DNA of 64,000 nt from Eledone cirrhosa. Lineage: Eukaryota. The notes under the pieces were generated by a model. That model did no database searches, had not been told where the DNA came from, and saw only the letters and a list, made by a program, of their open reading frames with translations. The first letter of the stretch is position 1. Every line of letters begins with the position of its first letter. This document shows positions 8,025-58,553 of this stretch, one piece after another. Made by a program: the position numbers and the translations under genes. The stretch covers positions 195,486,001 to 195,550,000 of the forward strand of contig OZ024742.1 in NCBI GenBank assembly GCA_964016885.1. The letters are read 5' to 3'.

Positions 8025-11158
<3,134 letters not shown>

Positions 11159-23252: not shown

Positions 23253-23657
23253 AACTATTATAGGCACCCGTTTTACGTGTGTTGTACTGAAGCGAATAAC
23301 TATGTGTATACTCTGGGAATGTATCCTACATTACCTATTGAGTACGCTGAGATACAACCGGTCCTGGCATTGATAAATTTGCTGGGTCCGTCAACTCCTT
23401 ATTATATATAGAGATATATAGATAGATAGATAAATAGATATATTTCTTTATTTACCATAAAGGCATAAAAAGAAGGGACAAATACAAAGGGGGAGTTTAC
23501 ATAAAACCGAGTAAAAAGGGTATAAAATGAAAATAATCAAAAACAACCTCAAAAGGGAGGGGACGTGATGGGGGTTGCACACACCCCCGAAAAAGTGTGC
23601 AATCCTTTGCCCGGGGAGCACATGGAGAATGTGCTCCCCTCTCCTTCACTTCTTTAC

Positions 23658-26600
23658 CTACAGGATGGTATACAGAGAAGGCCCATTTACACGAGCCATT
23701 CTCGCCACTATCACCCACCTTTCATAAAACTGCCTGTGGCCAAGCACCTCTCTCTCCATTCTTATCCTTCTTCCGAAGTGATATCGGAAGAAGTAGACCA
23801 GACTATGACCAGAGAGGAAGTTGCCTGACCTCAGACCTTTCAATTGTGTCCACCAAATAACCTCTTTCAACATGGCTATTACGCACAGAAAAACCACCTT
23901 TGCTTCCTTTGTGAAGAGGGGAGGCGGCTTGATTGTCATCACGGACTCGGCGGTCAATCGAATAGGCGCCACCCGCGACAGCAGTCGTTCGGCGTAGCCC
24001 CACAGATCAGCCACGCCCGGACATTGCACCAATGCGTGCGCAACGGTTTCTTCGTGACGCACGCATCTAGGGCAAATGTTTTCGAGGGATCCCTACCCGA
24101 GCGCCCGTGTCTGTAGAGCTTTTCTCGAACGGGTAGAGCCCCCCGATAGCACTGCCAGGCCAGGGACTTCTGGAAGTTGTCCATTGATCCCGGGCCGAAA
24201 GTCCTACCGAACAGGCTGGCCAGTTCGTCCTTTTCCATGTCCAGCGACTCTCCAAGGGTGTCATTGCCCCTGCTAGCCACCAGCCCTCTATAGAATGACG
24301 AGGTGGATTCTCCACCGATGGCCGGGTCCGCTTGCCAGAGAGCCCTGAGCGCCTGGGCACACTCAGTGTGCCAGTCGCCCGGTTTCCCGGATCTTTTCTT
24401 GACCCAGGACTGCAGCTCGGTGAGCGAGACGAGTCTCGGAAAGGCTCGTCTCACGAACGGAGCCCACACCGGTTGACCAGTGAGGAATACCTGTAGGTGC
24501 CGTAGCCTTACTGCGTGCCTACGCATCATCAACCACGGCATCCCCAGCCCTCCTTTCGAAGGTTGTTGGCAGCAGATGGATCTTCTCACCATAGGGGGGC
24601 ACTTTTTCCAAAGAAATTGAAAGAGCATGCGTTCCATGGTGGTGAGTGTTTCCTTAGGGCAAGGCACGACAGTCAGGCGGTAGTAGGTGACGGACGCTAT
24701 GTAAATGTTCGCCACCTCCACTCGACCTTTCAGGGATAGCTTACACTTGGCCCATTTCTGGGTCAGTGCAAACACCTTGCTCGTAACCTCGCCCCAGTTC
24801 TTTTCCACCTGGAGGTCCGGTCCAAACCAGACCCCAAGCAACTTCACCGGGCCCTCCGTGAAGTGTCCGACGACACCGTCGGGAGGCATCGGTCTGCCTC
24901 TCCACGTTCCGAGTTGCAGCCCGATGGATTTTTCCCGGTTCAGTTTCGCTCCTGACAACCTTTCGTATTCCTCGAGTAAGGTGCCAATCGCCTCGATCTC
25001 CGAGTCGGTCGATACCATTACTGTTACGTCATCGGCGTAGGCCGACACCGCTTTTCTCAATCTTGGTTCCAGGGGGATACCTTGCAACAACTCCAACTTC
25101 CTCAGTAAAGGCTCGAGAGTCAATGCGTACAGAAAGGAGGAGAGAGGGCACCCCTGTCGAATGGATCGTGTGATTTCGAACGGCTTCGAAAGGTAGCCGT
25201 TCACCTTGATCCTAGAACAGATGTGGTTGCTATGTAAGGCAGTGATCCAGCCTCTGAAAACAGGACCGAACCCAGCCGCCGCTAGCACCGCATCCAGGTA
25301 ACCATGGTCGACCCTATCGAACGCCTTAGACTGATCCAAGTTGATCAGGGCCCCACCGAAGCCGGGTTTGTTGCCAACCCTCTCTATGATGTATCGCATG
25401 AGGTGGAGGTTGTCGTGAATGGACCTGGATGGGATAGCACATGTCTGCGCATCTCCCACCAGGCTACCCACGACAAGCGCCAACCTCTTTGCTAACACCT
25501 TGGCCAAAATCTTTAACTCTGTGTTTAGCAGGGTTATGGGCCGAAAATTATTTATACTATCCCCTTGTTCTCGTCCTTCCTCACCAGCGAGACTACGCCC
25601 TTGACTACAGAACAAGGAATTCTCCCGTTCTGCTGCCAATTGCAGTAGACTGCTTCGAGGAGTTCGGAGAAGAAGACCGGCATTGCCAAATAAAGTTCGT
25701 AAGGTATACCATCGAGACCTGGAGATTTGCGTCTGCTGCATTGGCTCAACGCATCCCCGATCTCATCAGCCGAGATTGGTCCCTCGCAGGACTCTGCCTC
25801 TTCGCTCGTGAGACGCGGCAGGCCGTCGAGGTATGGACCGAAATCCACGTCCTCGCCCGGACCCCCGCCTCCCCCGAACAATCGGGCAAAGTGCCTTTGA
25901 AAGGCCTCGCACATCTGCTTAGGCTCCCGGATCACCCGTCGATTTCCACTCTTAGATCGATTTCCACTCTTAGCTTCTGTCACGCGGGCCCATCCAACGG
26001 CTTTGGCCCCCTCATTACCTAGAGCACGTATTTTACTTCGAATGGCGCAGCCTTCGTGCTTTGCATCGAAAAACTGGCTCAAGGCCGTCCTCGCTGCCAG
26101 CACTCTAGCCACATCTTCGCTCTTGATTGCCTCTTCTAATTTACCTGTTAATTCTTTCTCGTTCCTATTCCTATCGGCAGCTAACATCTTGCTATAACTT
26201 ATTGATTCTGTTCTAATCTCTCTTTTGAGAGATGCCCACCATCGGTTGTTGACGATTGCACCCGTCAACCTCTCTTTAACTAATCTGCTAATCCGGTCTC
26301 TGTAAGCCTCTTTTGCCGGTAAAGACAAATTAAGTTTCCAGTAACCGGGACCCTGTCTATGTGTTCTCTCGAGGTTGACTACGCAGGTCACTAATTTGTG
26401 ATCTGTATAGCCAACCGTGAGCATTTCTGGACAGCTTAATATGTCCCTATCCTTACTTCTAACTAAGAATCTATCTAAGTACGATCTAGATTGACCACTG
26501 TGGTTCGTCCAAGTCCAGGTTGGCACAGTTGGAAAATCCAGTCGATATCTATCGACCAAGTTAAAACGGTCGAGTAACCCCTTGAGGCTGTTATACCCCC

Positions 26601-27078
26601 CTCTATTAGGACATGCTTCTGCATAGTCCCAACGTGCATCTAGGATGTCATTCCAGTCCCCCGCTAGAAGCAGGGAACGCGACGTTCCCAGAAAAGTCTC
26701 CAGACGACGGAAGAAGTCGGGTCGTTCAGCTCCGAAAGGGGAGTAGACGGCGACCAGTCTCAAGGCCACACCTCCACTACTGCCAACGTCTAGCACCAAC
26801 AAACGACCTTCCGGGTCCGAGTGAACAACCTGTACGGCGAGACCCAGGTGTTTTTCCAGCAGTACGACAACCCCACCCCCACCTCCAGGTTGACAGAGAG
26901 ATGCGTGCACCTCAAAGTCATCGAAGGTAGGGGCCAGCTGCCGCACGACGCTGATCCGAGTCTCACAGATAACCATTACATTTATACCACGTGACCTGAG
27001 GTCATTTAGAAGCTTTGCTTGCTTACAAGTTGAGCCCAGGCCACGTGCATTCAAACATCCTACTCTTAACACATCCAT
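23658..27078 (-). pseudogene. Copy A ORF2 (APE endonuclease, RT, Cys-His domain) split over three frames
   Basis: LNARGL, GDWN, YLDRF, TDH; LDQSKAFDRV, RQGCPLS, AYADD; frameshifts near 25560 and 24075. Confidence 0.92.
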
Positions 27079-27111
27079 GTGGGCAGCAAAGCCAAAGGAG
27101 AGTGTAGAGAC

Positions 27112-28962
27112 CTACCTTTCTGCTTCCAGGGGTTCGGGTCGCACGACTTCCATGGGGTCGGGGATGTTGGGTGAAGGGGTGTCTTGTGGTGGTGTGGGGT
27201 CGTCAGTGTGTGGTGGGGTTGGGGTGTTTGGAGTTGCGTTGTGGAGGGGAAGGGGAGGGGGAAAGCTTTTTAGGAGGACACGGTTTATGGGTTTGACAGA
27301 GGGTGGTCCTACGTCCTCCTTAAAATCCTTTTTTAGTTTTTGGTAGAGGTTCATTGGGACCTTTATTAATTTTAAATGTGGGTAGTTTTCTGAAGAAACA
27401 AAGTTTACCCCTTCGGTTTGTACCGTTTATGAGTTAATTTAATTTATTATTGTTTCTGTTGATGTAAGTATAGTGTAATGTCTTTTTTTCGGATGGTGTG
27501 AGTGTTTCGAAGAGGGGAGGGGCAGGTTTGGTTTTGTTTGTTGCTGGAGGGGGGTTTTCTGTTTTGTTGGATTGTGTTGAGATTTGGGTGGTGGTTGTTT
27601 GGCCTTGTGTGTTTTGCACATGTTTTCTTTTTTTTCCTTTTAATCTGTCTGAAGGACTCCGTTTCTTCCTCCGAATTCGTTGGGTTATCTTCAGTGTTGG
27701 AGGGAAGAGGTATGTTTGCTGGTAATGTTTCCGTGTTAGTTTTCTTTGTGGGGGAGATGGATGTCACTATGTTAGACTGTGTTGTGTGTTGTGGCTGCGG
27801 TGGTTGTGTTGTTTAATTGAGTGAGGGGTTGGGTGGGACTGTGTTTTGTTTTGGGGTAATGTGTTGTGTCTGTTTGTGCTGTGGTGGGGGTGTAGTTTTA
27901 CTGAGGGACGGGTTGGGTGGGACTGAGTTTTGTTGTTTGTTTATCTGTTGTGGTGGTGGTGGAGCTGGTGTTGGTAGCAGGGTTTTCTTCTTGTTGAGTT
28001 GGGGACAAGCCGCCTTCAGGTGCCCTCTGCCTGCACAGATATGACAGGACGGTATTCTCCCCTCCACGCTAATGTTTATATACCCGTGGCCCTCTAATAG
28101 GATTCTGTCGGGTATTTGGGCAATGCGTTCAGGCTTCATTTGCACTACAAGTTCTATACCTGTTCCACTGAACGCATTGCCTGTGGTTTTCCCAATGGAA
28201 ATCACGTTGTCATTCGCTGGATCGATGAAGCCAGCTATGAGCCAGCAGTAGTCCATATCTGGCATCATCGCATCCAGCCATATGCGCTGAGTTCTTTTAC
28301 CCATATAAGGTAAAATTTGTCGAACGAATCGGCGACAAAGCATATTTTTTTGCCGCCGATTCGTTGTTCATAATAATGGCTAGGCTTCCATAGAGCCTGT
28401 CGCTTTAATTTCTGCTTGTGTTGGTTGTTGTGGCTTTTTTGAGATGCTGTTGATGGTGCGGAAAACGACCGTCCGACTTTCAATATCTTTGGTGAGTTCT
28501 TGGGGCATTTTTACTGACAAGGCTCCATTTTCCCCTTGAGTTATGAATTGTTTGGCGTTTTTTATTCTTTGTGCCACATGTGAAATATTTTCAGGTATGT
28601 ATGTTAAAGATTTTTTTGTTGTTTGTGCAAATGAAATGTTATTGGTGTTGACTTTGTCGTCTGTTTTGCTTTCTGTTATGATGTTGCTGTTTTCAAATGT
28701 CATTTTTGTGTTTGTTGTTTCTTTGTTTGTGGTATTAATATTGTCATGCAATTCTTTCATATTTTTTGTTGTTGTTGGAATCAATCTCCAGACCTGTGTC
28801 CTCGTCCACATTTTTCTCCGCACATTCGTCTGTTTTTATTTTATTTTTTCTTTCCTTCTCTATGACGTTAGTTGGGAAGGAATGGGGGACTAAAGCGTGC
28901 GAGCTTACAACTCTTACCGCTGCCCCCCCCCCCCCACTATTTTCGTTAGCTTCGTTTAACAT
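27112..28962 (-). pseudogene. Copy A ORF1, disrupted
   Basis: Fragments collinear with the 625-aa ORF1 of copy C, including the zinc knuckle CHICAGRGHLKAAC. Confidence 0.88.
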
Positions 28963-29173
28963 TTCTTCCAGACGATTGAAATAATTTTATGCAACAAATT
29001 TTTAAAAACAGATTTTTGAGCTGACCCACCGCCTGACAGTTCAGACGGGGGGTCAAGCTACACAATAGTATCAAAATTAAAATTAAACTTACAGAATTTC
29101 CGTAATAAATTGGAACAAAACTTCTGCGCGAAGTGAATTACGTCTACGCTATCGAACAGACGACAGCTAGATT

Positions 29174-29186
29174 AATAGATAGATAA

Positions 29187-29265
<79 letters not shown>

Positions 29266-29266: not shown

Positions 29267-29504
29267 ATTTCTTTATTAGCCACAGGGGCACAAAAGAAGG
29301 GGACAAATACAAAGGGGGAAGTTTACATACAATAAAAACGTGTAAAATGTTATCACAGATGGAATTTAAAAGTTAGTCGATTTTCCCCAATAGAGGGAGA
29401 CAGTTTATATGGGTAACACATACCCCCGAAAAAAATGTGCAACCCTCATCTCCAGGAGTACGAAGAGCTTGTACTCCTTTCCTCTCCTCCTCCTTTTCCT
29501 CAAT

Positions 29505-32500
29505 CTACAGGCTGATATAGAGAGAAGGCCCATTCACTCGGGCCATTCTCGCCACTTTCACCCACCTTTCATAAAACTTGCTGGGGTACAGCACCTCTCT
29601 CTCCATCCTGATTCTTCTTCCAAAGTGGTATTTGAAAAAAAGAATCAGTTGTTGGCCGGAGAGAAAGGTGTCTGACCTCAGCCCTTTCAACCTTGTCCAC
29701 CATACAACCTCTTTCGCCATAGCTATCACACAAAGGAAAACCGCCTCTCCTTCGTTTTTGAAGGAGGGTGGCGGTTTGATCATGACAATGGACTCGGTGG
29801 TCAACCGGATTGGTCCCACCCGCGACAATAGTCGTTCTACATATCCCCACAGGTCAGTGACGCCCGGGCAGTGTATGAATGCGTGCGCGACGGTTTCTTC
29901 GTCTCGCACGCACCTCGGACAGATCTTTTTTGCAGGGTCCCTGCCCGGGCGCCCATGTCTGTAGAGCTTGTCTCGAACTGGTAGAGCTCCTCGGGAGCAC
30001 TGCCAGGCCAGGGACTTTTGGAAGTTGTCCATCGGTCCCGGGCGGAAGGTCCTACCGAACAGACTGGCCAGTTCATCTTCCTCCACGCCCAGAGTTTCAC
30101 CGAGCGCGTCGTCGCACTTGCTGCGGACCAACCCTCTATAGAATGACGAAGTGGAGTCTCCACTGATCGCCGGGTCCGCCTGCCAGAGGGCTGTGAGCGC
30201 CTGAGCACATTCGATGTGCCAGTCGCCCATTTTCCTCGGTCTCTGCTTGACCCAGGACTGCAGCTCGGTCAGTGAGACGAGTCGTGGGAAGGCTCGCCTC
30301 ACGAACGGGGCCCACACCGGTTGTCCGGTGAGGAATACGTAGAGATGCCGCAGCCTGAGCGCGTGTTTGCGCATCGTCAACCACGGCATCCCCAGCCCTC
30401 CGTTAGAAGGGTGTTGGCAGCAGATGGATCTTCTTACCAAAGGAGCCCGCCTTTTCCAAAGTAATCGGAAGAGGGCGCGCTCCATTTTGGCGAGCGTTTT
30501 GGCTGGACAAGGCACGACGGTCAAGCGGTAGTAGATGGCGGACGCTATAAAAGTGTTCGCCACCTCCGCTCGACCTTTCAAGGATAGTTTGCACTCGGCC
30601 CACTTCTGGGTGAGTGCAAACACCTTGGCCGTCACTTCGTTCCAGTTCTTCTCCACCTGGAGGTCCGGACCAAACCAGACCCCGAGCAGCTTTACCGGTC
30701 CTTCCGTCCAGCGTCCGACGACGCCATCGGAAGGCATCGGTTTGCCTCTCCACGATCCGAGTTGCAAACCGATGGACTTGTCCCGGTTCAGCTTCGCTCC
30801 TGTGAGACTTTCGTATTCCTTTAGTAAGGTGCCGACTTTCTCGATTTGCGAGGCGCTCGACACCATTACTGTCACGTCGTCGGCGTAGGCCGACGCCGCT
30901 TTCCGCAGTCCCGGTTCCAGAGGGATGCCCTGCAATAGCTCCAGCTTCCGCAGTAGTGGCTCGAGAGTCAGTACGTACAGAAGGGAGGAGAGAGGGCATC
31001 CCTGTCGAATGGATCGCGTAATATGGAACGGCTCCGAGAGGTAACCGTTCACCTTGACCCTTGAGCAGATGTTGCTGTTGTGCATTGCAGCAATCCAGCC
31101 CCTGAACACGGGTCCGAAGCCTGCCGCCTCGAGCACCGCATCCAGGTAACGATGGTCAACCCTATCGAAAGCCTTAGACTGATCCAAGTTGATCAGGGCC
31201 CCACCGAAGCCGGGTTTACACCCTACCCTCTCTATGATGTATCGCATGAGGTGGAGGTTGTTGTGTATGGACCTGGTCGGGATCGCGCATGTCTGCGCTT
31301 CTCCCACCAGGTTCTCGACGACAAGCGCCAGCCTCTTTGCCAACACCTTGGCCAAAATCTGTAACTCTGTGTTTAGCAGAGTTATGGGCCGGAAGTTGCC
31401 TATGTCATCCCCCTTATTCTCGTCCTTCCTGATTAGTGTGACCACGCCCCCGGTTACAGAATTGGGAATTCTCCCGTTCTGTTGCCAGTTGCAGTAGACC
31501 GCTTCCAGGAGACCGGAGAATAAGTCCGGCATTGCTACGTAAAATTCGTAGGGTAGACCGTCGAGACCTGGAGATTTGCGTTTGCCGCATTGGCTCAGCG
31601 CGTCCCCTATCTCAGTGGCTGAAATCGGCTTTTCGCAGAACTTCGCCTCGCTGTCCGAGAGTCGCGGTAGGCCGTCGAGGTATGGACCGAAATCCATAGC
31701 CTCTCCCGGCGCGCCGCTCCCCCCGAACAGCCGAGCAAAGTGCCGCTGAAAAGCCGCACACATCTGCTTCGGCTCACGTATCACGCGTCCGTTTTGGTCC
31801 TTCAAAGACCGAATCGTGGACTTGTTGCCACTTTTTGCCTCCGTCACTCGGGCCCAGCTAACAGCTTTGGCTCCCTCGTTTCCCAGAGCACGTATTTTGC
31901 TTCTGACAACGCAGCCCTCGTGCTTTGCGTCGAAGAACTGGTCCAAGGCCGTTCTCGTTGCTAGCACGCTGGCTACGTTGCCACTTCTAATAGCCTCTTC
32001 TACTTTATCTACCAGTTCCTTCTCGGTTCTATTTCTATCTAACGCTAATTCTTTACTAAAAACTATCGAGTCTAATCTAACTGCCCTCTTGAGAGAGTAC
32101 CACCATCTGTTGTTGACAATGGCCCCTGTCAAGTGCTGTTTAACTAAAGTGCTAATCCGTCTACTGTAGGCTTTGCTTGTCGGTAACGACAAGTTCAGCT
32201 TCCAGTAGCCGGGTCCTTGTCTATGGGTTCTATCAAGGTTGGCCATGCAGGTCACTAGTTTGTGATCTGAATAGGCAACCATGAACATTTGTGGACAGCT
32301 TAACATGTCCCTATCCTTATTTCTAACTAGAACCCTATCTAGGTACGATCTAGATGTTCCGCTACGATTACTCCACGTCCACAGTGGCGCAGTCGGAAAA
32401 TCTAGTCGATATCTATCGGCCAGGTCAAATCGGTCGATTAACTGTTTGAGGCTGTTACACCCCCCTTTATCGGGACATGCTCCCACATAGTCCCAACGTG

Positions 32501-32942
32501 CATCTAGGATTCCATTCCAGTCCCCCACTAAAAGCAAGGAGCGGGACGTTCCCAGAAAAGTCTCTAGACGTTTGAAGAAGTCTGGCCGCGGTGTCCCGGA
32601 TGGGGCATATGCGGCCACCAGCCTGAAGGCTCCACCTTCACTACCGTCAACGTCTAGGACCACCAGTCGACCCTCCGGGTCCAGATGTACCGTCTGTGTT
32701 ACGAGGCCCAGGTGTTTCCGCAGCAAAACGGCAACTCCGCCCCCACCCCCCGGTTGACAGAGAGATGCGTAGATCTCAAAGTCATCGAAGATGGGGGCCA
32801 GCTGTCGCTCGCCGTGGATCCTGGACTCGCAAATGGCTACCACATCCAAACTGTGCGACCTGAGGTCGTTTAAGAGTTTGCCCTGTTTCCAGGGCATCCC
32901 CAGGCCGCGTACGTTCACACATCCAACTCTTATATTGGCCAT
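29505..32942 (-). CDS. LINE ORF2 protein: APE endonuclease, reverse transcriptase and zinc-binding domain, 1145 aa
   Basis: VNVRGL, GDWN, YLDRV, YSDH, GPGYWKLN (Tx1/L1-type), KSPGLDGLP, FRPITLLN, KAFDRVDH, RQGCPLS, AYADD, CPRC...ETVAHAFIHC. Confidence 0.97.
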   Translation of the reverse strand: MANIRVGCVNVRGLGMPWKQGKLLNDLRSHSLDVVAICESRIHGERQLAPIFDDFEIYASLCQPGGGGGVAVLLRKHLGLVTQTVHLDPEGRLVVLDVDGSEGGAFRLVAAYAPSGTPRPDFFKRLETFLGTSRSLLLVGDWNGILDARWDYVGACPDKGGCNSLKQLIDRFDLADRYRLDFPTAPLWTWSNRSGTSRSYLDRVLVRNKDRDMLSCPQMFMVAYSDHKLVTCMANLDRTHRQGPGYWKLNLSLPTSKAYSRRISTLVKQHLTGAIVNNRWWYSLKRAVRLDSIVFSKELALDRNRTEKELVDKVEEAIRSGNVASVLATRTALDQFFDAKHEGCVVRSKIRALGNEGAKAVSWARVTEAKSGNKSTIRSLKDQNGRVIREPKQMCAAFQRHFARLFGGSGAPGEAMDFGPYLDGLPRLSDSEAKFCEKPISATEIGDALSQCGKRKSPGLDGLPYEFYVAMPDLFSGLLEAVYCNWQQNGRIPNSVTGGVVTLIRKDENKGDDIGNFRPITLLNTELQILAKVLAKRLALVVENLVGEAQTCAIPTRSIHNNLHLMRYIIERVGCKPGFGGALINLDQSKAFDRVDHRYLDAVLEAAGFGPVFRGWIAAMHNSNICSRVKVNGYLSEPFHITRSIRQGCPLSSLLYVLTLEPLLRKLELLQGIPLEPGLRKAASAYADDVTVMVSSASQIEKVGTLLKEYESLTGAKLNRDKSIGLQLGSWRGKPMPSDGVVGRWTEGPVKLLGVWFGPDLQVEKNWNEVTAKVFALTQKWAECKLSLKGRAEVANTFIASAIYYRLTVVPCPAKTLAKMERALFRLLWKRRAPLVRRSICCQHPSNGGLGMPWLTMRKHALRLRHLYVFLTGQPVWAPFVRRAFPRLVSLTELQSWVKQRPRKMGDWHIECAQALTALWQADPAISGDSTSSFYRGLVRSKCDDALGETLGVEEDELASLFGRTFRPGPMDNFQKSLAWQCSRGALPVRDKLYRHGRPGRDPAKKICPRCVRDEETVAHAFIHCPGVTDLWGYVERLLSRVGPIRLTTESIVMIKPPPSFKNEGEAVFLCVIAMAKEVVWWTRLKGLRSDTFLSGQQLILFFKYHFGRRIRMEREVLYPSKFYERWVKVARMARVNGPSLYISL

Positions 32943-32975
32943 GTTGGTGCTGAAAAGTTAAAAGAGGAAAAGAGA

Positions 32976-34892
32976 TCACTCACCCTTCGCCTCCTGGGGA
33001 CCAGGCCGCACGATTTCCATGGGGGTGTTGGAGGGGTTGTCTGGATGGGTGGTGGTTTCCGGCGGGGTGGGGACGCAGATGTTTGGTGGGGTGGGGTCTG
33101 GTGGGATGGGGGTGTCTGGGGTGGGGAGGCATTTGAGAAGGACGCGGTTGAGTGGTTTCACGCAGGAATTCCCCACATCCTTCTCAAATGTTTCTTTTAG
33201 GGACCTATAAGTTTGTATAGGGACCCTAATCAGTTTTAGGTTCATTTTTTTGCTATTTTTTATAGAGTGGGCGAAAGTTTTCCCTTCGGTGAAAACCGAA
33301 GGGTCGTTCGTAATGGTCTCCATTAGTGTTTTGTTTTCAGTGTTTATGTAAGTGTAAGTGTAATTTTCTTGTGTTGTGTTTGTTTTTGTCTGTAGTTCTT
33401 GTGTGTGCTTTCGTTTTGTTGTAGGTATTTTGTTTTCAGGAGGTGGGGGTTTTGTTTGTGATATTTTTGTTGTTTGTGTTGGTGGTTGTATGTTTGTGGT
33501 AGTGTTTGCTGGTTTTTTGCTTTTGTGATGTCTTTTCTTTCTTTTCGAGCGATGGGGTTCTCCCTCGTCTTCACTGGGTGATGGCGAGATAGCCTCATCT
33601 GTTGTATCGTCTGTGTGATTGGGGAGGGGTATGTCTTGGGGAGTTGTTGTGTCTGTATGTGATTTTGCAGTGGTTTTAGGTGGAGTGAGGTTGGGTGGGA
33701 CTGTGTTTGTTGTGGTTATTTTTGTGTGTTGGTGTTGTTGTTGTAGTGGTAGTGTTGGTGGTTGTGTTGTTTTGATGGGTGTTGGCAGAAGAGCCTTTTT
33801 TTGGTTCATTAGTTTAGGACAGGAAGCCCTCAGGTGACCCCTGCTAAAGCAATGGTAACATGAAGGCCGCCTACCCTCAACCGAAAGGTTTATGTAGGTA
33901 AGTCCGTCCAGGAGTACACGCTGTGGGATCATAGCTATTCGCTCTGGGCTCATTTGCACCAGAACTTCAATGCTAGTCCCATTGAATACATTTCTGGGGG
34001 ACTTGCCTACTGACAGTATTCTGTCTTCATCAAAATTGATGAAGCCGCACAGTATCCACCATATGTTCACCTTTGGTGTGACACTTGTGATTCTGATCTT
34101 TTGTGTCCTTTTTCCCATGTATGTAGGGAAAAAGGTGTACAGGTTGGATACAATTGGCGACACAGAGTAATTTTGGGCCGTCAATTGATCCTTCATCAGT
34201 ACCGAAATACTCCCAAAAAGTTTGCTTCTTTGAATGAATGCAATATCATTCATTGAATCTTTGAAAACCAGTTCAATATCTTTCTGTGACAATTGGACTG
34301 GTTTTCGGGTAGAATTGGAAACTGTCCTAAAAACTATCGTTTTGAGAGCAGTTTCCTTGCGAATTTCTACCGGAGAATTGATGCTGAAAGCACCATTTTT
34401 TTCGAAGGTGACATATCTCTTAGCGTCCTTTAAAAGGTGTTCAGCATTTGTTATGTCGAGATATATCAATTGTTCTTTCTTTTGAACTTTCTCCGCAAAG
34501 GAGATTTTTGGTTTCTTTGTGGAATCCGTATTGGTGGTGTTGTCATTATTGTTGTTATTCTTGTTGTTATTCTTGTTGTCACCGATGTTGGTATCATCCG
34601 TATTTTCCTTGGTGTTGTTGTTGTCTTTGATGCTGGTGTTATTGGCGTTGTCTTTATTTTTTTCTTTGTTGTTGTTATCATTGTTGCTTTTATCATCATT
34701 ATTGGTTTTGCTGTTATTTTTGTTGTCATTGAGCTGTTTGGTGTCATTTGTGTTGTTTGGATGTGAATTCGTTTTTTTATTTTCATTTTGTCTTTCCATC
34801 TCTATAGTATCTAGTGAAGAAGACGTTGTTGACTGCGAGCTTTGTAGTCTTACCGCCTCTCCACCACCATTATCGTTGGACGCAGCGTTCAT
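32976..34892 (-). CDS. LINE ORF1 protein (gag-like, CCHC zinc knuckle), 638 aa
   Basis: Upstream of ORF2; CYHCFSRGHLRASC; Asn-rich N-terminus and Pro/Thr-rich linker. Confidence 0.92.
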   Translation of the reverse strand: MNAASNDNGGGEAVRLQSSQSTTSSSLDTIEMERQNENKKTNSHPNNTNDTKQLNDNKNNSKTNNDDKSNNDNNNKEKNKDNANNTSIKDNNNTKENTDDTNIGDNKNNNKNNNNNDNTTNTDSTKKPKISFAEKVQKKEQLIYLDITNAEHLLKDAKRYVTFEKNGAFSINSPVEIRKETALKTIVFRTVSNSTRKPVQLSQKDIELVFKDSMNDIAFIQRSKLFGSISVLMKDQLTAQNYSVSPIVSNLYTFFPTYMGKRTQKIRITSVTPKVNIWWILCGFINFDEDRILSVGKSPRNVFNGTSIEVLVQMSPERIAMIPQRVLLDGLTYINLSVEGRRPSCYHCFSRGHLRASCPKLMNQKKALLPTPIKTTQPPTLPLQQQHQHTKITTTNTVPPNLTPPKTTAKSHTDTTTPQDIPLPNHTDDTTDEAISPSPSEDEGEPHRSKRKKRHHKSKKPANTTTNIQPPTQTTKISQTKPPPPENKIPTTKRKHTQELQTKTNTTQENYTYTYINTENKTLMETITNDPSVFTEGKTFAHSIKNSKKMNLKLIRVPIQTYRSLKETFEKDVGNSCVKPLNRVLLKCLPTPDTPIPPDPTPPNICVPTPPETTTHPDNPSNTPMEIVRPGPQEAKGE

Positions 34893-35358
34893 AACGTAAT
34901 CAAAATTTTACAATATTTTTTCCAAGATTCGATGGAGAAAAATTTTTTAAATGGATATTCCGCCCCTGAAGGGGCGAAAATGAGTTGACCCACCACCTGA
35001 AGGTCCAGACGGGTGGTCAAGTTACACAATGATATAAAATTGAACTAAAAACTCACGTTTTTTCCTTACATAAATTAACGGAAACTTCTCCGCGAAGTGA
35101 CACACGACTGATAGAGAGATAGATAGATAGATAGATAGATAGATTTCTTTATTTACCATAAAGGCATAAAAAGAAGGGACAAATACAAAGGGGGAGTTTA
35201 CATATAATCGAGTAAAAAGGGTGTAACATGAAAATAATCGAAAATAACCTCAAAAGGGAGGGGACGTGATGGGGGTTGCACACACCCCCGAAAAAGTGTG
35301 CAATCCTTTGCCCGGGGAGCACATGGAGAAGGTGCTCCCCTCTCCTTTACTTCTTTAC

Positions 35359-38300
35359 CTACAGGATGGTATACAGAGAAGGCCCATTTACACGAGCCAT
35401 TCTCGCCACTATCACCCACCTTTCATAAAACTGCCTGTGGCCAAGCACCTCTCTCTCCATTCTTATCCTTCTTCCGAAGTGATATCGGAAGAAGTAGACC
35501 AGACTATGGCCAGAGAGGAAGTTGCCTGACCTCAGACCTTTCAATCGTGTCCACCAAACAACCTCTTTCAACATGGCTATTACGCACAGAAAAACCGCCT
35601 TTGCTTCCTTTGTGAAGAGGGGAGGCGGTTTGATTGTCATCACGGACTCGGCTGTCAATTTAATCGGCGCCACCCGCGACAGCAGTTGTTCGGCGTAGCC
35701 CCACAGATCAGCTACGCCCGGACATTGCACCAATGCGTGCGCCACGGTTTCTTCGTGACGCACGCATCTAGGGCAAATCTTTTTTGAGGGATCCCTGCCC
35801 GGGCGCCCGTGTCTGTAGAGCCTCTCTCGAACGGGTAGAGCCCCTCGGTAGCACTGCCAGGCCAGTGACTTCTGGAAGTTGTCCATTGGTCCTGGGCCGA
35901 AAGTCCTACCGAACAGGCTGGCCAGTTCGTCTTCTTCCATGTCCAGCGACTCTCCAAGGGTGTCATCGCCCCTGCTAGCCACCAGCCCTCTATAGAATGA
36001 TGAGGTGGATTCTCCACCGATGGCCCGGCCCGCTTGCCAGAGAGCCCTGAGCGCCTGAGCACACTCAGTGTGCCAGTCTCCCAGTTTTCCGGATCTTTGC
36101 TTGACCCAGGACTGTAGCTCGGTGAGTGAGACGAGTCTCGGAAAGGCTCGTTTCACGAACGGAGCCCACACCGGTTGACCAGTGAGGAATACCTGTAGGT
36201 GCCGTAGCCTTAATGCGTGCCTACGCATCATCAACCACGGCATCCCCAGCCCTCCTTTCGAAGGTTGTTGGCAGCAGATGGATCTTCTCACCATAGGAGG
36301 ACGCTTCTTCCAAAGAAATTGGAAGAGCATGCGTTCCATGGTGGTGAGTGTTTCCTTAGGGCAAGGCACGACAGTCAGGCGGTAGTAAGTGACGGACGCT
36401 ATGTAAATGTTCGCCACCTCCGCCCGGCCTTTTAGGGACAGCTTACACTTGGCCCATTTCTGGGTTAGTGCAAACACCTTGTTCGTAACCTCGTTCCAGT
36501 TCTTTTCCACCTGGAGGTCCGGTCCAAACCAGACCCCAAGCAACTTTACCGGGCCCTCCGTCCAGTGTCCGACGACACCATCGGGAGGCATCGGTCTGCC
36601 TCTCCACGTTCCGAGTTGCAGCCCGATGGATTTTTCCCGGTTCAGTTTCGCTCCTGACAACCTTTCGTACTCCTCCAGTAAGGTACCGATCGCCTCGATC
36701 TCCGAGTCGGTTGATACCATTACTGTTACGTCATCGGCGTAGGCCGAAGACCGCTTTGCTCAATCCTGGTTCCAGGGGGATACCCTGCAACAACTCCAAC
36801 TTCCTCAGTAAAGGCTCGAGAGTCAATACGTACAGAAGGGAGGAGAGAGGGCACCCCTGTCGAATGGATCGTGTGATTTCGAACGGCTTCGAAAGGTAGC
36901 CGTTCACCTTGATCCTAGAACAGATGTGGTTGCTATGTAGGGCAGTGATCCAGCCTCTGAAAACAGGACCGAACCCAGCCGCCGCTAGCACCGCATCCAG
37001 GTAACCATGGTCGACCCTATCGAAGGCCTTAGACTGATCCAAGTTGATCAGGGCCCCACCGAAGCCGGGTTTGTTGCCAACCCTCTCTATGATGTATCGC
37101 ATGAGGTGGAGGTTATCGTGAATGGACCTGGATGGGATAGCACATGTCTGCGCATCTCCCACCAGGCCACCCACGACAAGCGCCAACCTCTTTGCTAACA
37201 CCTTGGCCAAAATCTTTAACTCTGTGTTTAGCAGGGTTATGGGCCGAAAATTATTTATACTATCCCCCTTTTTCTCGTCCTTCCTCACCAGCGTGACTAC
37301 GCCCTTGGCTACAGAACAAGGAATTCTCCCGTTCTGCTGCCAATTGCAGTAGACCGCTTCGAGGAGTTCGGAGAAGAAGACCGGCATTGCTAAATAAAGT
37401 TCGTAAGGTATACCATCGAGACCTGGAGATTTGCGTCTGCTGCATTGGCTCAGCGCATCTCCGATCTCATCAGCCGAGATTGGTCCCTCGCAGGACTCCG
37501 CCTCTTTGTTCGAGAGACGCGGCAGGCCGTCGAGGTATGGACCGAAATCCACGCCCCGGCCCGGACCCTCGCCTCCCCCGAACAATCGGGCAAAGTGCTT
37601 TTGAAAGGCCTCGCACATCTGCTTAGGCTCCCGGATCACTCGTCCATCTTCGTCTTGCAACGACCGGATGGTGGATCGATTTCCACTTTTAGCTTCTGTC
37701 ACGCGGGCCCATCCAACGGCTTTGGCCCCCTCATTACCTAGAGCACGTATTTTACTTCGAATGACGCAGCCTTCATGCTTTGCATCGAAAAACTGGTTCA
37801 AGGCCGTCCTCGATGCCAGCACTCTGGCCACATCTTCGCTCTTGATTGCCTCTTCTAATTTACCTGTTAATTCTTTCTCGTTTCTATTCCTATTGGCAGC
37901 AAACATCTTGCTATAACTTATTGATTCTGTTCTAATCTCTCTTTTGAGAGATGCCCACCATCGGTTGTTGACGATTGCACCCGTCAACCTCTCCTTAACT
38001 AATCTGCTAATCCGGTTTCTGTAAGTCTCTTTTGCCGGTAAAGACAAATTAAGTTTCCAGTAACCGGGACCCTGTCTATGTGTTTTCTCGAGATTGACCA
38101 CGCAGGTCACTAATTTGTGATCCGTGTAGCCAACCGTGCGCATTTCTGGACAGCTTAATATGTCCCTATCCTTACTTCTAACTAAGAATCTATCTAAGTA
38201 CGATCTAGATTGACCACTGTGGTTTCTCCAAGTCCAGGTAGGCACAGTTGGAAAATCTAGTCGATATCTATCGACCAAGTTAAAACGGTCGAGTAACCCC

Positions 38301-38797
38301 TTGAGGCTGTTACACCCCCCTCTATTAGGACATGCTCCTGCATAGTCCCAACGTGCATCTAGGATGTCATTCCAATCCCCCGCTAGAAGCAGGGAACGCG
38401 ACGTTCCCAGAAAAGTCTCCAAACGCTGGAAGAAGTCGGGCCGTTCAGCTCCGAAAGGGGAGTAGACGGCGACCAGTCTCAAGGCCGCACTTTCACTACT
38501 GCCAACGTCTAGCACCAACAAACGACCCTCCGGGTCCGAGTGCACAACCTGTACGGCAAGACCCAGGTGTTTTTGCAGCAGCACGACAACCCCACCCCCA
38601 CCTCCAGGTTGACAGAGAGATGCATGCACCTCAAAGTCATCGAAGGTGGGGGCCAGCTGCCGCATGACGCTGATTCGAGTCTCACAGATAACCATTACAT
38701 TTATACTACATGACCTGAGGTCATTTAGAAGCTTTGCTTGCTTCCAAGTTGAGCCCAGGCCACGTGCATTCAAACATCCTACTCTTAACACATCCAT
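35359..38797 (-). pseudogene. Copy C ORF2 with a single +1 frameshift just before AYADD
   Basis: ORFs 36731-38797 and 35359-36720 join; ggccgaagaccgc here versus ggccgacaccgc in copy A, near 36748. Confidence 0.92.
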
Positions 38798-38830
38798 GTG
38801 GGCGGCAGAGCCAAAGGAGAGTGTAGAGAC

Positions 38831-40708
38831 CTACCTTTCCGCTTCCCGGGGTTCGGGTTGCACGACTTCCATGGGGTCGGGGGTGTTGGGTGAAGGAGTG
38901 TCTTGTGGTGGTGTGGGGTCGTCGGTGTGTGGTGGGGTTGGGGTGTTTGGAGTTGTGTTGGGGAGGGGAAGGGGAGGGGGAAAGCTTTTTAGTAGGACGC
39001 GGTTTATGGGTTTGACAGAGGGTGGTCCTACGTCCTCCTTAAAATCCTTTTTTAGTTTTTGGTAGAGGTTCATTGGGATTTTTATTAGTTTTAAATGTGG
39101 GTGGTTTTCTGATGAAACAAAGTTTACACCTTCGGTTTGTACCGAAGGATTATTGTATATGAGTTCATTTAATTTATTATTGTTTCTGTTGATGTAAGTA
39201 TAGTGTAATGTCTTTTTTTCCGATGGTGTGAGTGTTTCGAAGAGGGGAGGGGCAGGTTTGGTTTTGTTTGTTGCTGGAGGGGTGTTTTCTGTTTTGTTAG
39301 ATTGTGTTGCGATTTGGGTGGGGGTTGTTTGTCCTTGTGTGTTTTGCACATGTTTTCTTTTTTTCCTTTTAATCTGTCTGAAGGACTCCGTTTCTTCCTC
39401 CGAATTCGTTGGGTTATCTTCAGTGTTGGAGGGAAGAGGTATGTTTGCTGGTAATGTTTCCGTGTTGGTTTTCTTTGTGGGGGAGATGGATGTCACTATG
39501 TTAGACTGTGTTGTGTGTTGTGTCTGCGGTGGTTGTGTTGTTTTATTGAGTGAGAGGTTGGGTGGGCCTGTATTTTGTTTTGGGGTAATGTGTTGTGACT
39601 GTTTGTGTTGTGGTGGTGTTGTGGTGTTACTGAGGGACGGGTTGGGTGGGACTGAGTTTTGTTGTTTGTTTATCTGTTGTGGTGGTGGTGGTGGAGCTGG
39701 TGTTGGTAGCAGGGTTTTCTTTTTGTTGAGTTGGGGACAAGCGGCCTTCAGGTGCCCTCTGCCTGCACAGATATGGCAGGACGGCCTTCTCCCCTCCACG
39801 CTAATGTTTATATACCCGTGGTCCTCTAATAGGATTCTGTCGGGTATTTGGGCGATGCGTTCAGGCTTCATTTGTACTACCAGCTCTATACCTGTTCCAC
39901 TGAACGCATTGCCTGTGGTTTTCCCAATGGAAATCACGTTGTCATTCACTGGATCGATGAAGCCAGCTATGAGCCAGCAGTAGTCCACATCTGGCATCAT
40001 TGCATCCAGCCATATGCGTTGAGTTTTTTTCCCCATATAAGATGGATAAAAGGTGAAATTTTTCGAACGAATCGGTGACAAAGCACATTTTTTTGCCGCC
40101 GATTCGTTCTTCATGATAATTGCTAGGCTTCCATACAGTCTGTCTTTTCTTATGAAAGTTGTTTCATTCAGTACTTCTGCGAGTACTGTTTTGATATCTG
40201 CTTGAGAAGGCTGTTCAGGTTTTTTTGTACTGTTGTTGATGGTCCGAAACTTGACCGTTCGGCTTTCAATGTCTTTCGTGAATTCTTGTGGCATTTTTAC
40301 CAATAAAATACCATTCTCACCTTCACTTATGTATTGTTTTGCGTCCGTGATCCTTCGTACCACATCTGAAATGTTTTCCGCTATATAAGTCAAAGATTTC
40401 TTTGTTTTCTGTGCAAATGAAATCTGGTCGTCTGCTTTGTTTTCTGATATGATGTTATTTTCAACTGTTATTTTTTTGTTTGTTGTGTCTTTGTTTGTGT
40501 TATTAGTATTGTCATGCAATTTTTCAAATTTTTTTTTTTCGTTGTTTTCGTCATTTAATTTTTCCTCCGCAGATTCGTCCGTTTTTATTTTCATTTTTCC
40601 TTCCTTCTCTATGACGTTAGTTGGGAAGGAAGGGAGGACTAAAGCGTGCGAGCTTACAACTCTTACCGCTGTCCCCCCACCACTATTTTCGTTCGCTGCG
40701 TTCAACAT
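38831..40708 (-). CDS. LINE ORF1 protein, 625 aa
   Basis: CHICAGRGHLKAAC knuckle; homologous to copy B ORF1 (YMGKKTQRI, NISVEGRRPSC, VKPINRVLLK). Confidence 0.92.
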   Translation of the reverse strand: MLNAANENSGGGTAVRVVSSHALVLPSFPTNVIEKEGKMKIKTDESAEEKLNDENNEKKKFEKLHDNTNNTNKDTTNKKITVENNIISENKADDQISFAQKTKKSLTYIAENISDVVRRITDAKQYISEGENGILLVKMPQEFTKDIESRTVKFRTINNSTKKPEQPSQADIKTVLAEVLNETTFIRKDRLYGSLAIIMKNESAAKKCALSPIRSKNFTFYPSYMGKKTQRIWLDAMMPDVDYCWLIAGFIDPVNDNVISIGKTTGNAFSGTGIELVVQMKPERIAQIPDRILLEDHGYINISVEGRRPSCHICAGRGHLKAACPQLNKKKTLLPTPAPPPPPQQINKQQNSVPPNPSLSNTTTPPQHKQSQHITPKQNTGPPNLSLNKTTQPPQTQHTTQSNIVTSISPTKKTNTETLPANIPLPSNTEDNPTNSEEETESFRQIKRKKRKHVQNTQGQTTPTQIATQSNKTENTPPATNKTKPAPPLFETLTPSEKKTLHYTYINRNNNKLNELIYNNPSVQTEGVNFVSSENHPHLKLIKIPMNLYQKLKKDFKEDVGPPSVKPINRVLLKSFPPPLPLPNTTPNTPTPPHTDDPTPPQDTPSPNTPDPMEVVQPEPREAER

Positions 40709-40938
40709 TTCTGTTAGACGATTGAAATTTTTTACACAAAATTTTTTAAAACAGGTTTTTCACCTCTAGGAGGGGTAAAGATGAGCTGACCCACCGCCTG
40801 ACAGTTCAGACGGAGGGTCAAGCTACACAATTGTATCAAAATTAAGTTTGAACTCACAAAATTTCCTCAATAAATTTGAACAAAACTTCTGTGCGAAGTG
40901 AATGACATCCACACTGTAGAACAGACGACAGCTAGATT

Positions 40939-41019
<81 letters not shown>

Positions 41020-41021
<2 letters not shown>

Positions 41022-44000
41022 TTCTTTATTTGCCACAAGGGCGCACAAGAAAAGGGGACAATACAAAGACATGCCGGGGATTTTACATACAATCGTGTAA
41101 AAAATATAAAACAAACAAACAATTATAACAATCGAAATCCCCAATAGGGGGGAAGCGCCACAAATGGGTTGTTTAATACCCCATCGATAGAACAACCCTC
41201 AACTTCAGGAGTGTGTTGTGCAAGTGCCCCTTTCTTCCTTTTGCTCTCTTCTTTAACCTAGAGGCTTATAAACAGAGAAGGCCCAATCAACCGGGCCATT
41301 TTTGCCACATTCACCCACCTTTCAGTAAATTTACTGGGGTGCAGTGGCTCTCTCTCCACTCTGATTCTCCTTCTAAAGTGATACTTAAAGAAGGGAATCA
41401 ATTGTTGTCTGGAGAGAACGGCATCTGTCCTCAGTCCTCTCAATCTCGTCCACCATATAACCTCTTTAACCATAGCCACTGTACAGAGGAAAACCGCCTC
41501 TCTTTCGGTTTTGAAAGAAGCTGGCGGTTTGATCCTTACTATGGACTCGTCAGTCAACTGGATTTGTCCCATACGCGACAGCAGTTGTTATAAAGGTCGG
41601 TTACGCCCGGGAAGTGTACAATTGCGTGCAGGACGGTTTCAATGTCCTGCGCGCATTTTGGACACGTCCTCTTGGAAGGTTCCCTGCCTGTAGATCTTCG
41701 ACACGTCCTCTTGTAAGGATCCGTGCCTGTAGATCTTGTCATGAACTGGTAGAGCTCTTCTGAAGCACTGCCAAGCCAGGGACCTCTGGAAGTTGTCCAT
41801 AGATCCCGGGCGGAAAGTCCTACCAAACAGACTGGTGAGCTCATCGTCTTCGACGCCCAGAGTCTCTCCGAGCACGTCGTCGCCCTTGTAACGTACGATC
41901 CCTCTATAGAATGTCGAAGTGGCGTCTCCACTGATTGCTGTACCCGCTTGCCAGAGGACTGTGAGCGCCTGAGCACATTCAATGTGCAAGGCGCCCTTCG
42001 TTTACGGTCTTTTCCTGACTAAGGACTGCAGCTCCGTCAGCGAGACGAGCTGCGGGAAATCCTGTCTCACAAACGGTGCCCACACCGATTGGGGGTCGGT
42101 GAGGAATACCTGGAGATGCCGCAGCCTCAGCGCATGTTTACGCATCATCAGCCACGGCATTCCCAGCCCTCCGTTGGAAGGGTGCTGCCAGCAGACGGAT
42201 CTCCTCACCAGCGGAGCCTGTTTCTTCCACAGAAACTGGAAGAGCATGCGTTCCTTCTTGGCGAGATGTTCACGGGGACAAGGCTCGACAGTCAAGCGAT
42301 AGTAGATGACGGACACTATGAAAGTGTTCTCCACCTCCGCTCGACCTTTCAAGGACAGTTTGCACTCTGCCCACTTCTGGGTGAGCGCAAACACCTTGGC
42401 CGTGACCTCGTTTCAGTTTTTCTCCACCTGGAGGTCTGGACCGAACCAGACCCCGAGCAATTTCACCGGTCCGTCCGTCCAGCGCCCAACGACTCTGTCA
42501 GACGTCATCGGTTTGCTTCTCGACGTACCGAGTTGCAAACCGACAGACTTGTCCGGGTTTAGTTTTTCTCCCGTCAGCGTTTCGTATTCTTTCAGTAAGT
42601 TGCCGATCATCCCGATTTCCGAGGTGCTCGACACCATTACCGTCACGTCGTCGGCATAAGCTGACGCAGTCCCGGTTCTAGAGGGATGCCCTACAACAGC
42701 TCCAATTTCCGCAGTAGTGGCTCTAGAGTCAATAATACAGAACGGAGGAGAGAGGGCATGCCTGTCGAATGGAACGCGTGACTGCGAACGGCTCCGATAG
42801 GTAGATTTTTACTTTGACCCTCGAGCAGATGCTGGTGTGCATCGCCTCGATCCAGAATCTGAAAACGGGACTGAAACCGGCCGTCTTGAGAACCGCTTCC
42901 AAGTATCGATGGTCGACCCTATCGAATGCCTTAGACTGATCCAAATTGATCAGAGCGCCACCGAAGCCGGGTTTAGTACCCACCCTCTCTATGATGTATC
43001 GCATGAGGTGGAGGTTGTCGTGTATGGACCTGGTCGGGATTTAACACGTTTGCGCTTTCCCTACCAGGTTCTCGACGACAAGCGCCAACCTCGTCGCTAG
43101 CACGTTGGCCAAAATCTTTAACTGTGTGTTGAGCAGAGTTATGGGCCTGAAGTTGTTAATTTCGTCCCCCTTGTTCTCGTCTTTCCTGATCAGCGTTACT
43201 ACGCCCTTGCCTGCAGAACTGGGAATTCTCCCGTTCTGCTGCCAATTGCAGTAGACGGCTTCGAGGACGCCAAAGAACAAGTCCGGCATGCCCATGTAAA
43301 ACTCATAGGGTAGACTATCTAGACCGGGGGACTTGCGTTTCCCGCAGCGGCCCAGAGCGTCCCGTATCTCAGTGTCCGTGTTCGAGAGACGCGGCAGGCC
43401 GTCGAGGTATGAACTAAAGTCCATTGCCACGTTCGGTTCACCGTCGTTCTGCTCAAACAGTTGCGCAAAGTGCTGCTGAAAGGCCGCGCACATTTGGTTG
43501 GGGTCAAGTAGCACGCGTCCGTTTTGGTCTTTCAAAGACCGAATCGTAGACTTTTTGCCTCCGCCACTCGGGCCCAGCTGACAGCTTTCGCTTCTTCGTT
43601 TCCTAGAGCACGTGTTTTGCTTCTGACCACGCAGCCTTCATGTTTCGTATCGAAGAACTGGTCCAGTGCCGTTCTCGACGCTAACACTCTAGCCGCGTTG
43701 CCACTTCTAAGTGCCACCTCTACCTTGGCTACTAGTTCTCTTTCTATTTTGTTTTTCTATAAGGCTAACTCTCTGCTAAACCCTAACGATTCTACTCTAA
43801 TTGCCTTCTTGAGAGAGTACCACCTATTGTTGACGATGGCTCCCGTTAACTGTTGCTTGACTAGTCTACTAATGCGTTCACTGTAAGCTTTACGTGCCGG
43901 CAACGACACGTTCAGCTTCCAGTATCCGGGTCCCTGTCTATGTGTTCTATCACGGTTGACTAAGTAGACGACTAATTTGTGATCTGAATAGGCAACCATG

Positions 44001-46201: not shown

Positions 46202-46240
<39 letters not shown>

Positions 46241-46782
46241 CATTGTCAGCCTCGGTGTTAGAAATCGCAATTTCTTGAGGTGAAACTTTATCTATAGATG
46301 TATCTATGGAGTTGTTGTTGTTGGCTTTTTCATGTGTATGTATATTAATAGGTTTAATTTCTGTGTTTTCTGTGTTTTCCTGTGTATGTTGTGTGTTATT
46401 TTTCTCCGCTTCGACGGTAGAAATTTTAAAATGTTCAAGTGGCAATATTTTTTTTCTTTGTTGACAGTCGTATCCATGACGACGTCCATAGTGGCAGAAG
46501 CAGATATAACGTTAATATCTGCCTCTCTTCTCTCTGTTAATATCCTTCGGCGTTCTTTCTGAGTCACTCATTTTTTTATGGTCGGCAACATTTGATTTTT
46601 TTTTTTAACAATTTTTAAATTAAATGTTCGCCCCTTTAGGGGCGAAAGATTGGATTAGCACCCAGCTGACAATTCAGCTTGGGGGTTAATCTACAAAATG
46701 ATATGTTTTTTCAAACAATTAGTTCAGTTTTTTGTATAGAAATTTACAAAAAAGCTTACCAGCGATGTTCCACGCGCCAAGC
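41020..46782 (-). mobile_element. Tx1-like LINE copy D, third family, heavily decayed
   Basis: Many fragmented ORFs collinear with copy B (MADLRVGSVNVRGLGMPWKQ, KAFDRVDH, CFRCGSTTYLKASC); same 3' terminus; flanked by (GATA)n. Confidence 0.92.
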
Positions 46783-46812
46783 AGATAGATAGATAGAGAG
46801 ATAGAGAGATAA

Positions 46813-46867
<55 letters not shown>

Positions 46868-57909: not shown

Positions 57910-58469
57910 AAACCACTTAATTACGGAGTCGCTGTTCACCCACTGGGGCTGGTTGGACTTGGTCCTAATGGTCTTAACTATGTTTCTAAGATTGGCCTTA
58001 CTTACTAGTCCCATATCTGTGCGTGACGCGTTTAATAGTCTACATGTGGGGTTAGAAGTAAAGTCTACCTTGTGATCTTTCAGGGTGAGGAACGCCTCCC
58101 GCTTAGCTAGAGATTGTAGCTTCTTATCTACCTTAAGGTCGGCGGCAAGTTCCTTGGCTTCTGTATTAATGTCGTGGTAGGCCATAGGGTTAGCTTTCTT
58201 ATATTTAGAAGTAATAGCGTTATGGGCCAGGTGGCGGAAAGTGGTGTTGTCGACTTCGTAAATATTACTAGTTTTGTCGGAAAGAACGAAGGTGTTATTA
58301 GAAGACCTAAATTTCTTAATATCATTTCTAAGTTTCGTTTGAAATGTGTTAGTGTGTTTGCGAAAGGAAATGTTAGCGACTAAGTCAAGAAGGTCCGTCT
58401 CGAAAGGAGCAAGTACAGTTACCTTAGGAGGGTAGGCTCTCGATTTCAGGTTAAAGGTGTTGTTGGTGC

Positions 58470-58552
<83 letters not shown>

Positions 58553-58553
<1 letters not shown>

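Follow-up and report, generated by a model that had tools for sequence, protein, structure and literature searches.

Can the spliceosome remove the entire second open reading frame (ORF2) of a long interspersed nuclear element (LINE) as an intron? The question is raised by a 64,000-nucleotide (nt) stretch of the Eledone cirrhosa genome (assembly GCA_964016885.1, contig OZ024742.1, positions 195,486,001 to 195,550,000), referred to here as the window and numbered from its first letter. Four full-length LINEs, designated A to D, lie head-to-tail on its minus strand from 46782 to 23443, sited in (TCTA)n. A preliminary description of the window reported a splice-donor consensus at the stop codon of the first open reading frame (ORF1) in each element, and an acceptor formed by the TAG that ends each ORF2; all eight coordinates and sequences are as reported, on the minus strand. 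From these sequences and those of related copies, it appears reasonably likely that the spliceosome removes ORF2 as one intron from part of the transcripts, generating an ORF1-only mRNA. The donor side is real, lineage-wide and well above chance, and ORF2 is a probable intron.

A splice donor at the end of ORF1

The predicted ORF2 introns span 3479 nt in B (29505..32983, donor AGG|GTGAGT at 32983), 3476 nt in C (35359..38834, AAG|GTAGGT at 38834), 3458 nt in A (23658..27115, AAG|GTAGGT at 27115) and 3451 nt in D (41258..44708, AAG|GTAAGT at 44708), all on the minus strand. Related copies were sampled with family-agnostic motifs and protein searches, and 209 ORF2 starts fell into 37 clusters. 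Two clusters, F22 and F35, are false starts in microsatellite and are left out of the counts; F18, represented by one decayed copy whose donor carries a G-to-A change, is retained, and the ORF1 phase of F25 was assigned by homology, not from the longest frame of its copy. The GT at the ORF1 end is retained in 99 of 103 distinct copy contexts, scored on the best 9-mer inside a 47-nt interval, and 76 read G|GTAAGT. The site fits the U2-type donor consensus MAG|GTRAGT, and the donor classes seen across copies are GTAAGT, GTAGGT, GTGAGT, GTATGT and GTAATT. Among the 17 families with both ends in hand, the donor is the top-ranked of ~260 GT sites in 13 and within the top three in 16. In a B-family copy (L063) the donor ranks first of 253 GT sites and the acceptor second of 262 AG sites; in a C-family copy (L070) the corresponding ranks are first of 262 and second of 258.

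Several comparisons set this site apart from its surroundings. First, changes on the ORF2 tree number 0, 1, 0, 1, 3, 1 and 0 at donor positions -1 to +6, and 4–9 at positions -24 to -4. Second, the motif persists whichever phase ORF1 is in and with the ORF2 ATG anywhere from 21 to 53 nt away, so neither the protein nor the stop codon accounts for it. Third, an equally good donor occurs at only 25 of 1314 stop triplets elsewhere in eight elements, and at the ORF1 stop of one of 26 distant metagenome relatives, whose best segments are mostly 21–33% identical to the search query; in 35 such relatives ORF2 stops in TAG 12 times, in TAA 12 times and in TGA 11 times. Judged by these controls, the donor at the ORF1 end is a trait specific to this lineage, far above chance, and it very probably has a U1-type function. 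In F0 copies such as L159, the ORF1 3' end seems to be a chimera between F8-type and F6-type ends, in which the donor has shifted ~43 nt downstream.

Reading frame across the predicted junction

Joining donor to acceptor in silico reproduces the E-R-stop earlier given for A and C. The K-D-stop given for B is correct for the window copy, whose TAG|A is a minor variant, but not for its family: the 10 B-type ends listed have TAG|G, which makes K-G-stop the join of the family, compared with K-G-E-stop in the unspliced ORF1. Both outcomes of the join in D, which had been called ambiguous, are also recovered, K-G-stop and a 28-residue tail; however, the true phase of D ORF1 is phase 2, as in the intact D-type copies L070 and L078, and in that phase the join adds the 28-residue tail, not an immediate stop.

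Across families, a stop falls within two codons past the join in 8 of 14 families read in their true phase, versus 4 of 28 readings in the wrong phases and 51 of 1232 joins placed further into the untranslated region (UTR). The phase match has a Fisher p of 0.009 with families treated as independent; since the families are related, such p-values are too small. All five phase-1 families stop at once after the join, and the phase-2 families A/C, E and F13 carry the matching +2 stop, one base earlier. This non-coding sequence after the ORF2 stop is the best sign that this particular donor pairs with this particular acceptor.

An acceptor at the end of ORF2

The acceptors at 23658 (A), 29505 (B), 35359 (C) and 41258 (D) all end in TAG, on the minus strand, and across the 14 families with this stop the acceptor is in the top four of ~260 AG sites in eight. 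In the lineage whose ORF2 ends in TAA (F0, F6 and F30), the element's rank-1 acceptor instead lies in the 3' UTR, 151–178 nt in, as a T-rich tract ending in CAG. F8, the TAG-bearing sister of this lineage, has CAC at the CAG position, and one related copy (L198/L244) carries both the TAG and the 3' UTR CAG. The series suggests that a new acceptor arose before the old one was lost.

There is no strong branch-point consensus upstream of the ORF2 stop, and the -35 to -28 region forms the loop of a 5–6 bp hairpin. The hairpin occupies the last ORF2 codons (29526-29545, minus strand); its stem is paired in nearly every one of 17 families, with a single compensatory change, and the likely branch-point region falls within the loop. 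The purine-rich stretch that follows the acceptor was considered as a splicing enhancer, but it also base-pairs with the UTR's 3' end (whole fold z -1.1).

A proposed model

In the mechanism that we propose, the spliceosome would join the donor on the ORF1 stop to an acceptor that coincides with the ORF2 stop or lies shortly past it. The spliced product would be an ORF1-only mRNA with the 3' UTR and its poly(A) signal, and the unspliced RNA would make ORF2 and serve as the insertion template. LINEs need far more ORF1 protein than ORF2 protein, a ratio commonly explained by poor translation of ORF2 from a single bicistronic RNA; splicing would raise this ratio and throttle retrotransposition. 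With the donor on the stop codon, the exon junction would not fall far behind the stop, and the spliced mRNA would escape nonsense-mediated decay under its 50-nt rule. The spliced RNA would not be copied, since no ORF2 would be made in cis. A 60–69 nt GT-AG unit in the 5' UTR, described below, is likely to be a second retained intron or a U1 site. A broader version is tentative and, in our judgment, comes somewhat short of an even chance: that an octopod LINE lineage uses retrovirus-like balanced splicing, with a ~60-nt 5' UTR intron and an ORF2 intron yielding ORF1 mRNA, that only fully unspliced RNA jumps, and that selection rebuilt the acceptor and post-junction stop as ORF1 frames shifted. 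If the model is true, the host gains a splicing switch over the retrotransposition of a lineage with at least 20,000 3' ends, and cephalopod RNA read counts on these LINEs may reflect ORF1-only, non-mobile RNA, not activity.

Observations against removal of ORF2

A number of results weigh against this model. On the acceptor side, the site ranks only 7–39 in 6 of the 14 TAG families, under scoring matrices, used for donors and acceptors alike, that are approximations not trained on this genome. The TAG is conserved no better than synonymous drift would allow, given that 32 of 67 two-fold A/G sites show one change or none on the ORF2 tree, and we dropped it as an argument for the acceptor. The TAA lineage, which is the (ATT)n-targeting G lineage and is 69% identical to B in ORF2, has lost the AG at the stop, although it retains the donor; its TAA fulfils one of the conditions that the preliminary description had named as refuting its proposal. 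The acceptor swap of the TAA lineage is a single event, and RNA pairing can instead explain the post-acceptor purine run and part of the pyrimidine tract. On the side of the reading frame, the relatedness of the families reduces the phase match to about two independent states; the join would add tails of 28–80 residues, one of them hydrophobic, in 5 of 14 families, D and the abundant F3 among them; and the TAA-lineage join would add 20 or more residues. The earlier statements that every ORF2 ends in TAG and that joining restores a stop at once fail for the G lineage and for the five families with tails. Among the features that had been proposed for comparison across families, the donor GT and, in part, the post-junction stop are conserved beyond the window, but the TAG is not distinguishable from drift.

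Spliced copies in the genome are likewise missing from the searches made. Junction probes for B, A/C, the G-lineage donor joined to CAG, and F2/F3/F5 each returned 0 joined copies; their positive control is of B type only (297 unspliced junctions), and the D-type junction was not probed genome-wide. None of the 40 deletion rows in 250 partly overlapping loci falls at the predicted splice sites, and in 91 ORF1-end contexts ORF1 was never seen to run straight into the 3' UTR. We rejected one deletion whose GT-AG ends emerged only when a low-identity ORF1 alignment was shifted by 6 nt. The precise ORF2-less copies anticipated by the preliminary description were therefore found in none of the probes, deletion rows or ORF1-end contexts, and its suggestion that splicing could seed HAL1-like elements gains no support from the same counts (0 joined against 297 unspliced B junctions, and 0 in the three further junction searches). 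If ORF2 acts in cis, as described for human L1 (PMC5860796), an absence of spliced genomic copies is expected. These elements often bear large internal deletions that show little microhomology, or none (L054, L244, L324, L345 and others, within the same 40 rows and 250 loci), and one of the deletions joins mid-ORF1 to the ORF2 end.

Sequencing records that carry B were also surveyed, and none of them is listed as RNA. Run X4 was considered as spliced RNA only, as it holds 0.39 of B's words against an exon-only share of 0.40; this failed, because its contigs also span ORF2. The predicted junctions are not among the 15 joints listed of 206, which are drawn from contigs only, with run kinds unstated. 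Word-index searches for ORF1 relatives returned none, but a HMMER search recovered relatives in Octopus sinensis, O. vulgaris, O. bimaculoides and Argonauta hians; translated 3' UTR was present in 0 of 148 HMMER matches at E 0.01. One of these relatives, P0116, is a full 603-residue ORF1 on a 2209-nt contig, about the length predicted for the spliced mRNA, and its ORF1 ends in G-K, as in unspliced phase-1 ORF1s. An O. sinensis ORF1 model among the relatives (P0115-P0117) has a short basic tail. The Argonauta ORF1 ends in E-G-K-S, which is compatible with presence of the donor in that genus.

Taken together, the proposal that ORF2 is removable as an intron keeps its support from a donor present in almost all families, from the phase-matched stop and from the replacement acceptor of the TAA lineage; the acceptor, however, is only partly above chance, and splicing of the RNA is a prediction.

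Alternative explanations

The donor might bind the U1 small nuclear ribonucleoprotein (snRNP) with no productive removal of ORF2, suppressing premature polyadenylation or steering RNA export or stability, with the acceptor features as inherited by-products. We regard this as unlikely but credible. Conservation is far better at the donor than at the acceptor, the junction probes found no spliced retrocopies, and such a U1 role is described for the plant EVD element in the accessible part of one report (PMC5580714). The 5' UTR bears on it as well. Each window element has a GT-AG intron-like unit there, on the minus strand: 60 nt in B (34997..35056), C (40798..40857) and A (29033..29092), and 69 nt in D (46691..46759), whose UTR is of different sequence. 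A 59–69 nt AT-rich unit of this kind lies upstream of ORF1 in 12 of 13 5' UTR types, which form ~3 unrelated classes, and L315, L326, L335, L325, L347 and L254 are among the loci that have it. The units are weak one by one, with 2 to 92 of 300 shuffles scoring equally well, and the search imposed a length of 55–75 nt; when the length was left free, 6 of the 12 still gave this unit as the best. Among 60 B 5' regions, 41 are full length, 4 start after the unit and 15 have no 5' UTR. Precise loss of the unit was seen in 0 of the 41 full-length copies, so the RNA that is copied retains it, as a site bound by U1 but rarely used would be. Against U1 binding as the whole explanation, 9 of 17 families have no AATAAA or ATTAAA between the donor and the ORF2 stop, and there would be nothing to suppress; it also leaves unexplained both the phase-matched stop (8 of 14 versus 4 of 28) and the new rank-1 acceptor of the TAA lineage.

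It is improbable that the donor is spliced elsewhere, whether to an AG a few codons into ORF2 (a 41–76 nt mini-intron generating an ORF1-ORF2 fusion), to an internal ORF2 acceptor, or to a downstream exon of the host or of a tandem element. The inter-ORF spacer does resemble an acceptor region, being 71–84% pyrimidine in all 29 clusters listed; in-frame AGs occur 14–23 nt into ORF2, and some internal ORF2 AGs score above the stop AG in most families. However, no in-frame AG scores above 4.2 and most are below 0 (the misplaced start of F36 aside), the mini-intron would be only 41–42 nt in F2, F3 and F5, and cis copying of a fused RNA should leave such joins in the genome, whereas 0 of the 91 ORF1-end contexts show one. 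The pyrimidine-rich spacer of B (32943..32983, minus strand) has an acceptor-like AG 7 nt before the ORF2 ATG, with a score of 12.6. Strong acceptors 5–9 nt upstream of the ORF2 ATG are seen in B, F10/F30 and F23/F25/F27 (scores 10.9–13.2; L244, L241 and L320). Used with a 5' UTR donor, a pre-ATG acceptor could give an ORF2-only RNA like human SpORF2.

Equally improbable is a translation signal (a strong stop context serving termination and reinitiation on ORF2) or plain inheritance, unrelated to splicing: the stop codon does lie inside the motif in phase-2 families, the spacer is short, AUG-free and ends in a Kozak-like context, and all families on the tree have a single common ancestor, but the motif persists when the stop moves out (phase-1 ends G-K-stop, G-E-stop and G-R-stop), its non-coding +5/+6 GT and synonymous positions are fixed as the flanks turn over, and its variants follow the known donor consensus.

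The elements and their genomic setting

The genome, of 3.0 Gb, is rich in microsatellites, and the lineage has at least 7895 + 12,374 3' ends in it; the 7895 are of the (TCTA)n-type form. In the window, element B (29270..35108) is the sole intact copy, a full-length LINE of a very young family. C (35145..40930) is full length with a single frameshift in ORF2, A (23443..29175) has several frameshifts, and D (41020..46782) is full length, frameshifted and decayed; A and C belong to the same family. All four, on the minus strand, end in AATAAAGAAA and pass straight into (TCTA)n. The target microsatellite between C and B occupies 35110..35144, and similar tracts lie at 46783-46867, 40933-41021, 29175-29265 and 23403-23443. 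The best 40 genomic matches to B are all 100% identical over 601 nt, in keeping with its youth, and its ORF1/ORF2 junction, present in 297 genomic copies, marks it as abundant.

B ORF1 (32976..34892, minus strand) encodes 638 residues with one CCHC knuckle, detected as weak zf-CCHC matches; the knuckle, C-x2-C-x4-H-x4-C, is invariant across seven aligned ORF1s, and a CCHC knuckle in ORF1 is a Tx1 trait. B ORF2 (29505..32942, minus strand), of 1145 residues, matches the Pfam families for apurinic/apyrimidinic (AP) endonuclease (PF03372, E 2e-12) and reverse transcriptase (PF00078, E 2e-26), and zf-RVT (PF13966) at E 5e-6 and 27.4 bits, just under the cut-off of 27.5. Its closest solved structure is human L1 ORF2p (E 5e-51), followed by R2 (E 3e-22), in a comparison in which L1 and R2 are the only clades among the matches; named protein matches include plant 'Transposon TX1' and 'LINE-1' at 22–24% identity. 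The 3' UTR of B (29270..29504, minus strand) is purine-rich at its start and has AATAAA at 29277. On the combination of AP endonuclease, reverse transcriptase and a C-terminal zinc-binding region, the four elements are L1/Tx1-type LINEs, which lack long terminal repeats (non-LTR elements). They also target repeats as in the Tx1 clade, since either (TCTA)n or (ATT)n follows the 3' ends. The target is (ATT)n, not (TCTA)n, in a very active sister lineage (L154-L183, L214-L243), indicating a target switch between microsatellites inside one lineage.

Elsewhere in the window, Penelope-like-looking fragments occur at 9016-9762, 11814-13445, 53819-55273 and 57895-58572, recognized by a GIY-YIG match, a weak reverse transcriptase match, and reverse transcriptase-like and GIY-YIG-like motifs seen by eye. 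A degenerate triplet satellite of the (CAA/CAG/TAA) type, 7.4 kb long and extremely strand-skewed, fills positions 1-7394, and 19334-19939 holds two adjoining 46-bp minisatellite arrays of different units, each of ~6–7 copies. A short piece of a more distant LINE ORF2, 50% identical to B, lies at 63476-63793 (minus strand) next to an (AGT)n tract.

Comparison with known systems

Searches of the open literature, at the level of listings and the opening lines of abstracts, brought up no description of a LINE with a conserved intron across ORF2. The introns of TART, as far as the accessible text describes them, are in antisense RNA (PMC1636488). A paper on Octopus vulgaris repeats describes 13 recently active L1-Tx1 families, and its main text lacks the string 'splic' (PMC13282606). 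Kibi and Koshi are Tx1-clade LINEs in simple repeats, as are the elements here with (TCTA)n and (ATT)n, but they have other targets and another host group, and the available portion of their description does not mention splice-site architecture (PMC4494074). HAL1 elements would have the same ORF1-only coding content as the mRNA predicted here (PMC5753468); they are, however, genomic non-autonomous elements, and none with these junctions was found.

Human L1 offers a closer precedent. The accounts of SpORF2 and SpIREs describe a LINE whose splice donors, among them one in the 5' UTR, and acceptors are functional, with cis preference deciding which spliced RNAs are copied; the human products lose 5' UTR or ORF1 sequence and keep ORF2, whereas the product predicted here loses exactly ORF2, and SpIREs are termed dead ends (PMC2896524, PMC5860796). 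Set against human L1, the donor here is conserved lineage-wide, and spliced retrocopies were not found.

The nearest likeness is to copia. In Drosophila copia the intron covers all of pol and splicing gives a gag-only mRNA; in copia and in the plant Ty1/copia shGAG systems (EVD and BARE1), a ~3-kb intron takes in the entire catalytic ORF, and the spliced mRNA encodes the structural protein only, as is likewise predicted here (PMC5580714, citing Yoshioka 1990). Those are single-ORF LTR elements with RNA evidence, whereas these are bicistronic non-LTR LINEs with predicted splicing, a separate ORF1 stop, and splice sites that coincide with two stop codons. By their two ORFs, AP endonuclease and AATAAA end running into microsatellite, the LINEs are not members of Ty1/copia, although they would work like copia. 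If the model is true, the balance of ORF1 and ORF2 has been handed to the spliceosome in a non-LTR element, convergent with the solution of copia and of retroviruses.

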